This document shows, in pieces, positions 45,693 to 60,727 of a stretch of DNA of 64,000 bases (position 1 is the stretch's first letter; every line of letters starts with the position of its first letter). Below the pieces are notes generated by a model. The model saw only the letters and a program-made list of their open reading frames with translations. It did no database searches and was not told the origin of the DNA. A program made the position numbers and the translations under genes. This stretch comes from Escherichia coli. GTDB lineage: Bacteria > Pseudomonadota > Gammaproteobacteria > Enterobacterales > Enterobacteriaceae. The stretch lies in NCBI RefSeq assembly GCF_016026235.1, contig NZ_CP065613.1; one strand, written 5' to 3'.

Positions 45693-48047
45693 TCACAAAG
45701 TGTTTTGATACGGCAGAATGTTCGAACGCAGCATCTCTTGCGTACCCAGACCGTAATTGGAGCTCAGGCCGCGAAGTTCGATGTTAAAGCCGATTGCGTT
45801 GTCATATACCGCATGTTGTTTATCGTTATCCCAACCGTTCAGCTTCCGCTCGTAACCGACGCGAATTGCATAGCAGCAGGAGCTGTATTGCACACCTAAC
45901 ATAGAGTCAGCTTGCTTGTTCGCATTGGTGTCGTAGTAGTAGGCCCCAACAATGGACCAACGATCGGCAATTGGCCAGCTGGCGACAGCACCTACCTGCG
46001 AAATACCATTCTTATATTGCTCAGCAGTGGAATAGTACTTAGGCAGCGTAGCCTGAATATATTCCGGGCTGGCGTAACGGTAATTCAGCTGTACCAGACG
46101 GTCTTCATCCCGACGGTATTCAATGCTGGAGTTACTGGTCGCTACGTTATCCAGACGTGTATCGTACTGAATCCCGCCACGCAATCCCCAACGCTCGGAG
46201 ATACGCCAGTAAGTATCGCCTGCCCACACCAGTGAGCCCGTTTTGTCGTCATTCTCCCATGTTATGTTGTCATCGCCAGTGCGAGACTCCGTGAAATAGT
46301 AGATTTGACCAACGGAAATATTAAAACGTTCAACGGCAGCATCATCATATATGCGAGATGTGACACCGGTCGTCACCTGGTTAGCGGAGGCTATACGGTC
46401 AAGACCGCCGTAAGTCCGGTCCCGGAACAGGCCAGAGTAGTCAGATTGCAGCAGAGACGAGTCGTAGTTATAGATGTCGCTCTGATCGCGATACGGCACG
46501 TACAAATACTGCGCGCGCGGTTCCAGCGTTTGGGTATAACCCAGAGCCAGCATTTCCATATCGCGTTCAAAGACCATTTTGCCGTCAACTTTGAATTGCG
46601 GCATTACGCGGTTAACGGATTCGTCCAGCTTGGTTGTGTTTCTGGAGTTATACCAGTCAAGATTGGTTTGCTGATAATGGGTTGCCAGCAACTTCGCTTC
46701 GGTATTGATGCTGCCCCAGTTATTAGAGAGCGGCAAATTGATGGTCGGTTCCAGGTGAACACGAGTTGCTTCAGGCATGTCGTCTCTGGTGTTAACAAAG
46801 TGCACTGCCTGGCCGTAAATACGCGTATCAAACGGACCAACATCATTCTGGTAGTAGTTAACGTCTAACTGCGGCTCTGCCGAGTAGCTACTGGTGTTCT
46901 GTTCACTGAAGACCTGGAACTGCTTGGTTGAAACGGTGGCATTGAAGTTTTGCACCGCATAGCCAACGCTGAATTTTTGCGTTGCGTAGCCGTCAGTACT
47001 GGAACCGTACTTGTTATCGAAATCATTGAAGTAGCTAGGATCGCTGACCTTGGTGTAGTCGACGTTGAAACGCCACACTTGATCCATGACCCCGGAGTGG
47101 TTCCAGTAGAATAACCAACGACGTGAACTGTCATCGTTCGGGTGTTCATCTTCATAGACTTTATCTGAAGGCAGATAGTCCAGTTCCATCAAGCCAGCGC
47201 CCGCCTGGGAGAGGTAGCGGAATTCGTTCTCCCACATGATGTTGCCACGACGATGCATATAATGCGGCGTGATGGTGGCATCCATATTTGGCGCGATGTT
47301 CCAGTAATATGGCAGGTAGAACTCAAAGTAGTTGGTGGTGGTGTACTTGGCGTTCGGGATCAAGAAACCAGAGCGACGTTTGTCACCCACCGGCAACTGC
47401 AAATAGGGGCTATAAAAGATCGGTACCGGACCCACCTTAAAGCGGGCGTTCCAGATCTCCGCAACTTGTTCTTCGCGGTCATGAATAATTTCGCTACCTA
47501 CCACGCTCCAGGTGTCAGAACCCGGCAGACAGGAGGTAAAGCTACCGTTATCCAGAATGGTATAGCGGTTTTCGCCACGTTGTTTCATCAGGTCCGCTTT
47601 ACCGCGTCCCTGGCGACCCACCATCTGGTAATCACCCTCCCAGACGTTGGTATCTTTGGTGTTCAGATTCGCCCAGCCTTTCGGCCCTTTGAGGATCACC
47701 TGGTTATCGTCGTAATGGACATTACCGAGCGCATCAACGGTACGTACCGGCTCCGGTTGTCCTGGTGCCTCTTTTTGATGGAGCTGCACTTCGTCGGCCT
47801 GCAGACGGCTGTTACCCTGCATGATATCCACGCTGCCAGTAAACACGGCGTCATCCGGGTAGTCCCCTTTCGCGTGGTCAGCATTGATAGTCACGGGTAA
47901 GTCATTGGTATCGCCCTGTACCAGAGGACGGTCATAACTTGGCACGCCCAACATGCACTGTGAGGCGAGGTCGGCTGCCAGTCCCTGTTGACTATAAAGG
48001 GCGGTGGCAATCATGGTGGCCAGGAGAGTGGGGATACGTTTTTTCAT
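45693..48047 (-). CDS. lptD: LPS assembly outer-membrane protein LptD
   Basis: 784 aa with signal peptide; beta-barrel protein. Confidence 0.97.
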
Positions 48048-48301: not shown

Positions 48302-49117
48302 ATGCAGTATTGGGGAAAAATCATTGGCGTGGCCGTGGCCTTACTGATGGGCGGCGGCTTTTGGGGCGTAGTGTTAGGCCTGTTAATTGGCCATATGTTT
48401 GATAAAGCCCGTAGCCGTAAAATGGCGTGGTTTGCCAACCAGCGTGAGCGTCAGGCGCTGTTTTTTGCCACCACTTTTGAAGTGATGGGGCATTTAACAA
48501 AATCCAAAGGTCGCGTCACGGAGGCTGATATTCATATTGCCAGCCAGTTGATGGACCGAATGAATCTTCATGGCGCTTCCCGTACTGCGGCGCAAAACGC
48601 GTTCCGGGTGGGAAAATCAGACAATTACCCGCTGCGCGAAAAGATGCGCCAGTTTCGCAGTGTCTGCTTTGGTCGTTTTGACTTAATTCGTATGTTTCTG
48701 GAGATCCAGATTCAGGCGGCGTTTGCTGATGGTTCACTGCACCCGAATGAACGGGCGGTGCTGTATGTCATTGCTGAAGAATTAGGGATCTCCCGCGCCC
48801 AGTTTGACCAGTTTTTGCGCATGATGCAGGGCGGTGCACAGTTTGGCGGCGGTTATCAGCAGCAATCTGGCGGTGGTAACTGGCAGCAAGCGCAGCGTGG
48901 CCCGACGCTGGAAGATGCCTGTAATGTTTTGGGCGTGAAGCCGACGGATGATGCGACCACCATCAAACGTGCCTACCGTAAGCTGATGAGTGAACACCAT
49001 CCCGATAAGTTGGTGGCGAAGGGTTTGCCGCCTGAGATGATGGAGATGGCGAAGCAGAAAGCGCAGGAAATTCAGCAGGCCTATGAGCTGATAAAGCAGC
49101 AGAAAGGGTTTAAATAA
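48302..49117 (+). CDS. djlA: DnaJ-like membrane co-chaperone
   Basis: 271 aa from [19 protein letters not shown]..; C-terminal J domain with HPD. Confidence 0.95.
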
Positions 49118-49124
49118 GTTTTAA

Positions 49125-49215
49125 ACTGTAGGCCTGATAAGACGCGGCCCGCGTCGCATCAGGCAATCGGCGCACAATTGCCGGATGCGGCGTGAACGCC
49201 TTATCCGCCTACCGA
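49125..49215. repeat. REP/BIME element
   Basis: gtaggcctgataagacgcg...gccggatgcggcgtgaacgccttatccg. Confidence 0.85.
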
Positions 49216-49233
49216 ACTGCGCCAGCGTGACGA

Positions 49234-49893
49234 TTAAAAATCCGCTGGCGCTTTAAACGTCATACTATTGCCATACGCCGGATGGGTAATCGTCAACATC
49301 TCTGCATGTAGCAACAAACGCGGTGCCATCGCTCTCGCTTCTGGTGATGCATAAAAACGATCGCCGAGAATCGGATGCCCCAGCGCCAGCATATGCACAC
49401 GCAATTGATGCGAACGCCCGGTAATCGGTTTTAACACCACTCTTGCCGTGTTATCCGCCGCATACTCCACCACTTCATATTCCGTCTGCGCAGGTTTACC
49501 CGTTTCGTAACAGACTTTCTGTTTCGGGCGGTTTGGCCAGTCGCAAATCAGCGGCAGATCCACCAGACCTTCTGCGGGGGATGGATGCCCCCAGACGCGG
49601 GCCACATACTGCTTTTTCGGCTCGCGCTCGCGGAACTGGCGTTTTAACTCCCGCTCCGCGGCTTTGGTCAGCGCCACTACAATCACGCCGCTGGTAGCCA
49701 TATCCAGACGATGCACCGATTCTGCCTGCGGATAATCACGCTGAATGCGCGTCATCACGCTGTCTTTGTGCTCTTCCAGACGACCCGGCACTGACAACAA
49801 ACCGCTCGGCTTGTTGACCACCATAATGTGGTCATCCTGATACAGGATAACCAACCAGGGTTCCTGCGGTGGATTGTAGTTTTCCATCCCCAT
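49234..49893 (-). CDS. rluA: Pseudouridine synthase RluA
   Basis: 219 aa. Confidence 0.96.
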   Translation of the reverse strand: MGMENYNPPQEPWLVILYQDDHIMVVNKPSGLLSVPGRLEEHKDSVMTRIQRDYPQAESVHRLDMATSGVIVVALTKAAERELKRQFREREPKKQYVARVWGHPSPAEGLVDLPLICDWPNRPKQKVCYETGKPAQTEYEVVEYAADNTARVVLKPITGRSHQLRVHMLALGHPILGDRFYASPEARAMAPRLLLHAEMLTITHPAYGNSMTFKAPADF

Positions 49894-49904: not shown

Positions 49905-52811
49905 TTACTGATGCGTCACAACGATCAAACGCAGGGCATCCAGACGCCAGCCTGCCTGATCCAGGCTTTCCATTACCTGCTGACGGTTGCTCTCAATGGC
50001 GGTCAGTTCGTCGTCACGAATGTTCGGGTTCACTGCGCGCAGCGCTTCCAGACGAGACAGCTCGGCAGACAGTTTTTCGTCGGCTTCGTTACGCGCTGCA
50101 TCAATCAATGCACGGGCAGATTTCTCGATCTGCGCTTCACCCAGCTGGAGAATAGCGTGAACATCCTGCTGCACGGCGTTAACCAGTTTGCTGCCGGTGT
50201 GACGGTTAACCGCGTTAAGCTGGCGGTTAAAGGTTTCAAACTCCACCTGGGCCGCCAGGTTGTTGCCATTTTTATCCAGCAGCATACGTACCGGCGTCGG
50301 TGGCAGGAAGCGGTTGAGCTGCAACTGCTTCGGCGCCTGGGCTTCAACCACGTAAATCAGTTCCACCAACAGCGTACCTACCGGCAACGCTTTGTTTTTC
50401 AACAGTGAAATCGTGCTGCTACCGGTGTCGCCAGAAAGGATCAGATCCAGACCGTTGCGGATCAGCGGATGCTCCCAGGTAATAAACTGTGCATCTTCAC
50501 GCGCCAGCGCCACTTCACGATCAAAGGTGATGGTGATGCCATCTTCCGACAGGCCAGGGAAGTCCGGCACCAGCATATGATCGGACGGCGTCAGCACGAT
50601 CATGTTGTCGCCGCGATCGTCCTGATTGATACCGATAATATCGAACAGGTTCATGGCGAAGGCGATCAGGTTGGTATCGTCATCCTGCTCTTCAATGCTT
50701 TCTGCCAGTGCCTGGGCTTTTTCGCCACCGTTGGAGTGGATTTCCAGCAGGCGGTCACGACCCTGTTCCAGCTGTGCTTTCAGCGCTTCATGTTGCTCGC
50801 GGCAGTTTTTGATCAGATCGTCAAAGCCTTCGGTTTGATCCGGTGAAGCCAGATAGTTAATCAGATCGTTGTATACGCTATCGTAAATAGTGCGTCCGGT
50901 CGGGCAGGTGTGCTCAAATGCATCCAGACCTTCGTGATACCAGCGCACCAGCACCGACTGAGCGGTTTTCTCCAGATAAGGCACATGGATCTGAATATCG
51001 TGCGCCTGGCCGATACGATCCAGACGACCAATACGCTGCTCCAGTAGATCCGGGTTGAATGGCAGGTCAAACATCACCATGTGGCTGGCGAACTGGAAGT
51101 TACGTCCTTCAGAACCGATTTCTGAGCACAGCAGTACCTGTGCGCCGGTGTCTTCTTCGGCAAACCAGGCGGCAGCGCGGTCACGTTCGATAATCGACAT
51201 ACCTTCGTGGAACACCGCAGCGCGAATACCTTCACGTTCGCGCAGTACCTGCTCCAGTTGCAGCGCAGTGGCAGCTTTGGCGCAGATCACCAGCACTTTC
51301 TGAGAGCGATGGCTGGTCAGGTAGCCCATCAGCCACTCAACGCGCGGATCGAAGTTCCACCAGGTGGCGTTATCACCTTCAAATTCCTGATAAATACGCT
51401 CCGGGTAGAGCATATCGCGAGCACGATCTTCCGCACTTTTACGTGCGCCCATAATGCCGGAGACTTTAATAGCCGTCTGATACTGCGTCGGTAGCGGCAG
51501 TTTAATGGTGTGCAGCTCGCGTTTCGGGAATCCTTTCACACCGTTACGCGTGTTACGGAACAGCACGCGGCTGGTGCCGTGGCGATCCATCAGCATCGAA
51601 ACCAGCTCCTGACGGGCGCTCTGGGCATCTTCGCTGTCGCTGTTTGCTGCCTGCAACAGCGGCTCGATATCCTGCTCGCCGATCATCTCGCCGAGCATGT
51701 TCAGTTCGTCATTGCTCAGTTTGTTACCTGCCAGCAGCATGGCAACGGCGTCCGCAACCGGACGATAATTTTTCTGCTCTTCAACGAACTGCGCAAAATC
51801 GTGGAAACGGTTCGGGTCCAGCAGACGCAGACGGGCGAAGTGGCTTTCCATCCCCAGCTGTTCCGGGGTCGCGGTCAGCAGCAGAACGCCCGGCACGTGC
51901 TCTGCCAGTTGTTCAATGGCCTGATATTCACGGCTTGGCGCATCTTCGCTCCACACCAGGTGATGCGCTTCATCGACCACCAGCAGGTCCCATTCGGCTT
52001 CACAGAGATGTTCCAGGCGCTGTTTGCTACGACGGGCAAAATCCAGCGAGCAAATCACCAGCTGTTCGGTGTCGAACGGGTTGTAAGCATCGTGCTGAGC
52101 TTCGGCATAACGCTCATCATCAAACAAAGCAAAGCGCAGGTTGAAACGGCGCAGCATTTCTACCAGCCACTGATGCTGTAAGGTTTCCGGGACGATAATC
52201 AGCACACGTTCAGCAGCGCCAGAGAGCAGTTGCTGATGAAGGATCATCCCGGCTTCAATGGTTTTCCCTAAACCCACTTCGTCAGCCAGCAGGACGCGCG
52301 GCGCGTGGCGGCGACCAACATCATGAGCGATGTTGAGCTGATGCGGAATCAGGCTGGTACGCTGACCGCGCAGGCCGCTGTACGGCATACGGAACTGTTC
52401 GCTGGAATACTTACGCGCGCGATAACGCAGCGCAAAGCGGTCCATACGGTCAATCTGCCCGGCAAACAGACGGTCCTGCGGTTTGCTGAACACCAGTTTG
52501 CTATCAAGGAAAACTTCACGCAGGGCTACGCCGGACTCTTCAGTATCCAGGCGAGTACCGATATAGGTCAGCAAGCCATTTTCTTCTTTTACTTCTTCGA
52601 CTTGCATCTGCCAGCCGTCATGGCTGGTAATGGTATCACCAGGGTTGAACATCACGCGGGTCACGGGGGAATCACTGCGTGCGTACAGACGGTTTTCACC
52701 AGTAGATGGGAAAAGTAAAGTGACAGTTCGCGCATCCACCGCGACAACGGTTCCAAGTCCCAATTCGCTTTCTGTATCGCTGATCCAGCGTTGACCAAGT
52801 GTAAAAGGCAT
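49905..52811 (-). CDS. rapA: RNA polymerase-associated SWI2/SNF2 ATPase RapA
   Basis: 968 aa with helicase motifs (GLGKT, DEAH). Confidence 0.97.
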
Positions 52812-56108: not shown

Positions 56109-56280
56109 CGTGCCGGATGCACTTTGCTTATCCGGTCTACAAAATCGCAGCGCGTAGGCCTGATAAGACGCGCCAGCGTCGCATCAGGCGTTGAATGCCG
56201 GATGCGCTTTGCTTATCCGGCCTACAAAAACACAGCGCGTAGGCCTGATAAGACGCGTCAGCGTCGCATCAGGCGTTACA
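56109..56280. repeat. Tandemly duplicated BIME (two REP pairs)
   Basis: gccggatgc..ctttgcttatccgg.ctacaaaa..cgcagcgcgtaggcctgataagacgcg.cagcgtcgcatcaggcgtt occurs twice in tandem. Confidence 0.85.
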
Positions 56281-57809: not shown

Positions 57810-59848
<2,039 letters not shown>

Positions 59849-60727
59849 ATGGCTGAAGCGCAAAATGATCCCCTGCTGCCGGGATACTCGTTTAATGCCC
59901 ATCTGGTGGCGGGTTTAACGCCGATTGAGGCCAACGGTTATCTCGATTTTTTTATCGACCGACCGCTGGGAATGAAAGGTTATATTCTCAATCTCACCAT
60001 TCGCGGTCAGGGGGTGGTGAAAAATCAGGGACGAGAATTTGTTTGCCGACCGGGTGATATTTTGCTGTTCCCGCCAGGAGAGATTCATCACTACGGTCGT
60101 CATCCGGAGGCTCGCGAATGGTATCACCAGTGGGTTTACTTTCGTCCGCGCGCCTACTGGCATGAATGGCTTAACTGGCCGTCAATATTTGCCAATACGG
60201 GTTTCTTTCGCCCGGATGAAGCGCACCAGCCGCATTTCAGCGACCTATTTGGGCAAATCATTAACGCCGGGCAAGGGGAAGGGCGCTATTCGGAGCTGCT
60301 GGCGATAAATCTGCTTGAGCAATTGTTACTGCGGCGCATGGAAGCGATTAACGAGTCGCTCCATCCACCGATGGATAATCGGGTACGCGAGGCTTGTCAG
60401 TACATCAGCGATCACCTGGCAGACAGCAATTTTGATATCGCCAGCGTCGCACAGCATGTTTGCTTGTCACCGTCGCGTCTGTCACATCTTTTCCGCCAGC
60501 AGTTAGGGATTAGCGTCTTAAGCTGGCGCGAGGACCAACGTATCAGCCAGGCGAAGCTGCTTTTGAGCACCACCCGGATGCCTATCGCCACCGTCGGTCG
60601 CAATGTTGGTTTTGACGATCAACTCTATTTCTCGCGGGTATTTAAAAAATGCACCGGGGCCAGCCCGAGCGAGTTCCGAGCCGGTTGTGAAGAAAAAGTG
60701 AATGATGTAGCCGTCAAGTTGTCATAA
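59849..60727 (+). CDS. araC: Arabinose operon regulator AraC
   Basis: 292 aa from [23 protein letters not shown].. Confidence 0.97.

Follow-up and report, generated by a model that had tools for sequence, protein, structure and literature searches.

Introduction

The closest described relatives of the sequence considered here are the REP and BIME elements of E. coli, to which roles in transcription termination and in the binding of gyrase, IHF and Pol I have been ascribed (PMC2817692). Such elements also serve insertion sequences as targets, and IS621 and IS1397 have been described as REP-specific (PMC1525189). A second point of comparison is provided by the espY1 islet, known as ECs0061 in O157:H7 and as yabP-yabQ in K-12, which constitutes an alternative allele at the very chromosomal site between djlA and rluA that is the subject of this study. 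The EspY family has been described as WEX5F/SopD-like, and EspY1 has been reported to be translocated by O157:H7 (PMC6313403). Two further systems serve for comparison, namely naRNA4 (CssrE), which derives from the multi-REP cluster REP325, and the chromosomal ccd locus that strain IAI39 carries between folA and apaH.

We have analysed the djlA-rluA spacer within a stretch of 64,000 nucleotides of E. coli DNA, the whole of which is referred to as the window. Its REP pair is ordinary and already annotated, and the difference from K-12 is known strain variation in the form of a decayed espY1 islet, so that the significance of the result extends little beyond careful annotation. The spacer is, very probably, an ordinary REP pair that represents both the ancestral and the majority form of this site, with the K-12-type allele being a derived, IS-bounded espY1 replacement. 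What is corrected is a K-12-centric misreading: at djlA-rluA, the reference strain is the unusual one. The features on which this reading is based are collected in Table 1.

Table 1. Features of the djlA-rluA and folA-apaH sites in the window, and of the djlA-rluA gap in K-12 (L001 is the K-12 locus)
Feature	Coordinates	Strand	Description
ccdA-family antitoxin gene, truncated, no ccdB	ORF ending 40086	+	
Hypothetical gene, 155 aa	40185-40652	-	no family match
DUF4291 gene	40688-41287	-	
lptD	45693-48047	-	ORF
djlA	48302-49117	+	co-chaperone DjlA, 271 aa; ORF; annotated by RefSeq in the identical region of FDAARGOS_943
djlA-rluA spacer	49118-49233	.	between convergent genes, nearly all one REP pair
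REP1	49128-49164	- (canonical orientation)	GTAGGCCTGATAAGACGCGGCCCGCGTCGCATCAGGC; GCCTGATGCGACG-type core, core match 49152-49164
Rfam RF02564 naRNA4 (REP-pair model)	49131-49210	-	covers both REPs; 75.8 bits
Inter-REP linker, 15 nt	49165-49179	.	AATCGGCGCACAATT; conserved across Escherichia species
REP2	49180-49212	+	GCCGGATGCGGCGTGAACGCCTTATCCGCCTAC; GCCGGATGCGGCG-type core, core match 49180-49192
rluA	49234-49893	-	pseudouridine synthase, 219 aa; ORF; FDAARGOS_943 annotation
rapA	49905-52811	-	ORF
yabP	58474-59124 (MG1655)		within djlA-rluA gap
yabQ	59121-59279 (MG1655)		within djlA-rluA gap
IS256-family miniature remnant, 103 bp	L001 4179-4281 (K-12 58178-58280)		djlA side; IS256-family ends
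espY1 region	L001 4475-5280		preceded by ~190 bp of AT-rich sequence
Hairpin	L001 5281-5320		17-bp perfect inverted repeat
ISEc13-like (IS4-family) terminal remnant, 355 bp	L001 5299-5653		DNA comparison to ISEc13
Last 34 bp of K-12 islet	between ISEc13-like remnant and rluA stop		

Two Alleles at the djlA-rluA Site

In the window, the list of open reading frames leaves exactly 116 bp between the djlA stop codon, a TAA at 49115-49117, and the stop codon of the convergent rluA at 49234-49236, and two REP units of opposite orientation occupy 85 of these 116 bp. The same gene order has been annotated in FDAARGOS_943, which is 100% identical across the 1 kb tested. The length of djlA is 816 bp in the window and in K-12 alike. 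In MG1655 (NC_000913.3), djlA ends at 58179 and rluA occupies 59687-60346, which results in a gap of 1507 bp that contains yabP and yabQ and in a net length difference of 1391 bp. A preliminary description of this DNA, which had reported a 116-bp spacer made up of a REP cluster only and, for K-12, about 1.4 kb with yabP/yabQ, is borne out on both counts, and MG1655 does not share a spacer of about 116 bp. Its statement that some 1.4 kb are missing from the window holds for the size and fails for the loss that it implies, since the outgroups considered below point to the REP spacer as ancestral and to the K-12 segment as gained.

The espY1 islet is absent from the window. Compared with the whole window by blastn, the K-12 gap has matched the djlA and rluA coding flanks only, and a tblastn search of the window has detected no protein similarity to espY1 or yabP-yabQ (best E 0.72). 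Homology between the two sequences extends up to ...AAAT within the djlA stop codon (TAA in the window, TGA in K-12) and sets in again precisely with the TTA of the rluA stop; no REP has been found at the K-12 djlA-rluA site. The K-12 allele is a complete replacement of the REP spacer and not an indel, with no common sequence between the two stop codons.

The K-12-type islet has a length of 1.46-1.51 kb and a G+C content of 44%, compared with 52% for the window. On the djlA side, the IS256-family remnant has retained both terminal inverted repeats together with the last transposase codons, and the GA with which it begins provides the second and third bases of the TGA stop of djlA, which places the breakpoint inside the stop codon and makes this a tidy case of an IS end that supplies a replacement stop codon to a core gene. 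The left-end motif of this remnant is of low copy number (median 1, maximum 7 places per genome), and some of these places are on plasmids. A 58-bp partial copy with 91% identity has been observed at L007 2501-2558, where it abuts the N-terminally truncated helicase pseudogene yjhR, a gene that in K-12 belongs to the KpLE2 element.

In the central part of the islet, espY1 is intact in O157:H7, and the alignment to this strain has identified yabP and yabQ as espY1 broken in K-12 by two out-of-frame length changes, +29 bp in one 15-bp tandem-repeat tract and +14 bp in another. The RefSeq annotation of this segment in other strains lists espY1 ('T3SS effector EspY1') and, after it, an IS4/Tn5-family transposase pseudogene. 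When YabP, YabQ and EspY1 were scanned against Pfam and NCBIfam, no family match was obtained, so that the identification of espY1 rests on the RefSeq annotation, the O157 alignment and the literature (PMC6313403). The rluA side is formed by the ISEc13-like remnant, which shows 88% identity over 362 bp to the ISEc13 terminus plus the first ~57 codons; 34 bp separate its Tn5-like end from the rluA stop codon, and it holds a terminator-like hairpin oriented to follow rluA. The 'transposase DNA-binding' pseudogene that PGAP has annotated in the islet contains four in-frame stops on translation.

Terminal inverted repeats spanning the whole islet have been looked for and none has been found, the sole end-related repeat being the IS256-like pair at the left end; target-site duplications at the islet have likewise been looked for and none has been seen. 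The 34 bp adjoining rluA and the ~190 bp upstream of espY1 have no match in 80 enterobacterial djlA loci. The ancestral spacer would have been removed either by an IS-mediated adjacent deletion in situ or by the import, from an unsampled donor, of an allele that had been rearranged beforehand. Both routes are equally possible, and because of the lacking target-site duplication and the unmatched non-IS parts of the islet they are indistinguishable.

Distribution and Exchange of the Alleles in E. coli

Among 5426 complete E. coli genomes, the short contiguous djlA-rluA form has been found in 3182 (~59%) and the K-12-type islet, covered to at least 80%, in 2080 (~38%; 2083 by the left-end probe), with IS-disrupted spacers included in the remaining ~3%; all these counts are defined by BLAST coverage thresholds and are not phylogeny-based. 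The junctions of the islet and the TGA stop of djlA are identical in five out of five islet alleles (K-12, O157:H7, 300033, S1-CHI-01-A and SCU-316), which are 94-97% identical to one another (n=5), as compared with 95-99% third-codon-position identity in the djlA/rluA flanks. Since the junctions are identical and the divergence is close to that of third positions in the flanks, one old acquisition with roughly neutral drift is suggested. The islet would have been acquired once, long ago, and would later have moved between lineages by homologous recombination.

The 116-bp spacers of IAI1 and HS are identical to that of the window, and CFT073 and EPEC E2348/69 possess a 117-bp version. HS and K-12, both of which belong to phylogroup A, nevertheless differ in their djlA-rluA alleles, and either allele can be found between genes for the same DjlA and RluA proteins, as exemplified by DjlA WP_001200573.1. 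The combination of a patchy distribution with identical flanking proteins argues for the exchange of djlA-rluA alleles by homologous recombination.

One may ask whether the window lineage itself once had the islet and regained the REP allele by recombination, with crossovers in djlA/lptD and rluA/rapA. The patchiness of the alleles within phylogroups, as between K-12 and HS, is compatible with such a reversion, and so are the flanking genes, which are nearly identical between the allele classes, WP_001200573.1 occurring with both. However, nothing in the window requires a reversion, the spacer being identical to those of IAI1 and HS, and even if it had taken place, it would alter neither what the spacer sequence is nor what it does. 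We consider this history unlikely and retain the reading of the spacer as an ordinary, ancestral REP pair.

The EPEC prototype E2348/69, which is LEE-positive, has no espY1 at the site (L093 6617-6735) and carries the REP spacer there, while a decayed copy is kept by laboratory K-12, a LEE-negative strain. The presence of espY1 at djlA-rluA does not follow the presence of a T3SS.

Structure of the REP Pair

REP1 begins 10 nt 3' of the djlA stop codon, with its inverted-repeat arms at 49132-49147 and 49149-49164, and REP2 ends 21 nt short of the rluA stop codon. Going by consensus sequences, we regard REP1 as Z2-like and REP2 as Y-like. The tail of REP2 is devoid of one G (CTTATCC-GCCTAC), a 1-bp deletion when compared with the four other Escherichia spacers in the alignment, and one that IAI1 and HS have as well. 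In all other respects the units have the properties by which REPs are recognised: imperfect palindromes of ~35-40 nt with the core GCC(G/T)GATGCG(G/A)CG and the tail CTTATC(C/A)GGCCTAC, an extragenic location wholly between the stop codons of the convergent djlA and rluA, and many dispersed copies, with a median of 19 matching places per E. coli genome for a 1-kb query that includes the spacer. As in a BIME, successive REPs alternate in orientation and are 15 nt apart. Compared with the REP/BIME elements of E. coli, the spacer agrees in motifs, unit length (~35 nt), palindromic structure, extragenic site, alternation and copy number and differs in nothing material, representing a minimal two-REP unit with a REP2 tail that is 1 bp shorter. 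For the REP core GCCKGATGCGRCG, the window contains 15 copies where 0.81 would be expected, and this number was reached in 0 of 100 shuffles, which rules out a chance origin of the cores.

The REP pair also exceeds the curated threshold of the Rfam model for naRNA4 in sequence and structure (75.8 bits compared with a gathering score of 59.5, E=3.7e-13), and its predicted fold is one long hairpin with a minimum free energy of -50.7 kcal/mol on the plus strand (z -4.2) and of -52.7 kcal/mol on the minus strand (z -3.5). Both the minus-strand match to RF02564 and the very stable predicted fold are what would be expected if the spacer encoded a dedicated nucleoid-associated sRNA of the naRNA4/CssrE type and were not a passive 3'-UTR/REP element. 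RF02564, however, is in effect a model of REP pairs, and a second pair at 56157-56222 passes its threshold too; moreover, the REP cores number 15 in the 64 kb, no promoter-like site has been found within or beside the spacer in a scan of 48900-49450, and 38% of E. coli are without the element altogether, which in sum renders a dedicated sRNA very improbable. REP325, a longer cluster of several REPs, lies at another locus. The match reflects the REP sequence that both have in common, and an ordinary REP pair remains the preferred description of the spacer. The second pair, on the minus strand, scores 60.2 bits. Elsewhere in the window, the plus strand at 19098-19150 strongly matches the ES003 sRNA family (87.4 bits).

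A 9-bp perfect inverted repeat, GCGCCAGCG / CGCTGGCGC, at 49219-49227 / 49243-49251 straddles the rluA stop, one of its arms lying in the spacer and the other inside rluA. The spacer arm is gone in K-12-type alleles and imperfect in a 149-bp E. coli variant of the spacer.

Insertion Sequences in REP1

In other strains, REP-specific insertion sequences use the djlA-rluA spacer as a landing site, as has been seen directly in two genomes. EC_J_9 (L003 2709-4105) harbours IS621, an IS110-family element with a bridge-RNA recombinase, which is inserted at GTAG/GCC of REP1, equivalent to 49130/49131 of the window, and is accompanied on both sides by the dinucleotide AG (CT on the REP strand). In IAI39 (L094 11948-13501), IS1397, a member of the IS3 family, resides in the REP1 loop at the equivalent of 49146-49148 and is associated with a GGC duplication. 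REP1 of this site behaves as a REP also in this regard, and natural insertions of both IS621 and IS1397 have been documented in one specific REP.

Possible Roles of the REP Pair

A scan of 48900-49450 has revealed no intrinsic terminator, defined as a G+C-rich stem with a T-run, in the spacer, the sole match being situated inside rluA. The roles usually attributed to REPs and BIMEs fit the site because the 3' ends are convergent, the stem-loops are stable and a canonical intrinsic terminator is missing. When transcribed as the 3' portions of the djlA and rluA mRNAs, the G+C-rich REP stem-loops would shield the upstream mRNA from 3' exonucleases and would aid termination, possibly Rho-dependent, between the two convergent genes. 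By analogy with other REPs, we infer that the pair would act in 3'-end protection or termination, and REPs are indeed said to stabilise mRNA 3' ends, an observation attributed to Newbury et al. in 1987. A further effect on translation may be considered, as REPs at a distance of no more than 15 nt from a stop codon reportedly stall terminating ribosomes and lower the protein yield of the upstream gene, a result ascribed to Liang, Rudd and Deutscher in 2015; with its onset 10 nt from the djlA stop, REP1 falls within this range.

In K-12-type strains, djlA is followed by the IS256-derived sequence and rluA by the terminator-like hairpin of the ISEc13-like remnant. The two alleles could conceivably form a natural regulatory polymorphism in which the dosage of DjlA and RluA differs systematically between the allele classes, although we rate this as rather unlikely. 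If the alleles did regulate dosage in this way, K-12 would not serve as a representative model of djlA expression.

Polarity of the Replacement

The outgroup scan has covered 80 enterobacterial djlA loci with one genome per species. At loci with rluA less than 4 kb downstream, the spacer measures 28-216 bp in Citrobacter, Salmonella, Enterobacter, Kluyvera, Lelliottia, Kosakonia and others, the two longer gaps (483 and 1986 bp) belonging to the Pluralibacter lineage, and at none of the outgroup loci with rluA within 4 kb has espY1 been found between the two genes. Within the genus, E. albertii, E. whittamii and Escherichia sp. MOD1-EC7003 have spacers of 116-169 bp that can be aligned base for base with that of the window. 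Conservation in these three other species extends to both REPs, the linker and the bases on either side, and some of the spacers contain one or two additional REPs. Orthologous REP spacers in outgroup Escherichia, together with the absence of espY1 from this site in the enterobacterial outgroups, argue that the REP spacer is ancestral in Escherichia and that the K-12 islet is derived.

The converse, by which the window lineage lost an ancestral espY1 islet and the REP-only spacer is what the deletion left behind, with REPs moving in afterwards, might appeal to an islet that is old (3-6% divergence among carriers) and widespread (2080 of 5426 genomes in several phylogroups) and to the mobility that the RAYT hypothesis assigns to REPs (PMC2817692), but it is least likely of all and hardly credible given that the same REP pair, flanking bases and linker recur in E. 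albertii, E. whittamii and MOD1-EC7003, that no sampled enterobacterial outgroup has espY1 at djlA-rluA, that neither the islet nor its IS ends have left a scar in the REP allele, and that the islet, bounded by two IS remnants and with 44% versus 52% G+C, carries the signature of an acquisition. The REP spacer as the older state and the islet as the newcomer is the polarity adopted here.

Several observations concern variation at the same position. MOD1-EC7003 represents a cryptic Escherichia clade. The REP copy number is variable, as the GTDB representative of E. coli has a three-REP spacer of 149 bp (L008 4816-4966) and E. albertii one of 169 bp (L010 4816-4986), and three to four REPs are present across some E. 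coli and E. albertii (149-169 bp). In several ExPEC-type strains, the match is ~33 bp longer than the query at 94% identity, which probably corresponds to the three-REP variant. In K. pneumoniae (L065 4861-7207), a response-regulator and histidine-kinase pair is located 3' of djlA, with rluA not within 4 kb, and a Pluralibacter MAG (L057 5075-6208) contains a gene whose 377-aa product has an N-terminal signal-like sequence and is putatively secreted. The site downstream of djlA is recurrently variable across the Enterobacteriaceae.

The folA-apaH Islet

A second difference from K-12 is found between folA and apaH, where the gap amounts to 1425 bp in the window (39887-41311) as compared with 77 bp in K-12 (50303-50379). 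The additional ~1.35 kb announced for this site in the preliminary description agree well with the measured 1348 bp, and its view of both sites as strain-variable is supported by the genome counts, the two djlA-rluA alleles being divided 3182 to 2080 and the folA-apaH islet occurring in 536 of the 5426 complete E. coli genomes. Altogether 543 records match this islet, all but 14 of them with 95-99% identity to the copy in the window. The check that it put forward, whether the islet shares sequence with yabP/yabQ of K-12, has given a negative result, the best non-flank DNA match having an E-value of ~0.3 or worse and the best protein match one of 0.72. The folA-apaH and djlA-rluA sites are unrelated, independent polymorphisms.

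With respect to gene content, the islet resembles the chromosomal ccd locus of IAI39 in that it likewise opens with a ccdA-family remnant beside folA, which comprises 45 aa as annotated in FDAARGOS_943 versus 77 aa in IAI39. In contrast to IAI39, in which ccdA-ccdB is intact, the window has no ccdB and instead contains the 155-aa gene and the DUF4291 gene on the opposite strand. The neighbouring apaH (41312-42160) encodes 282 aa in the window and has the same length of 849 bp in IAI39, compared with 280 aa in K-12, and any occupied folA-apaH site may come with an altered 3' end of apaH.
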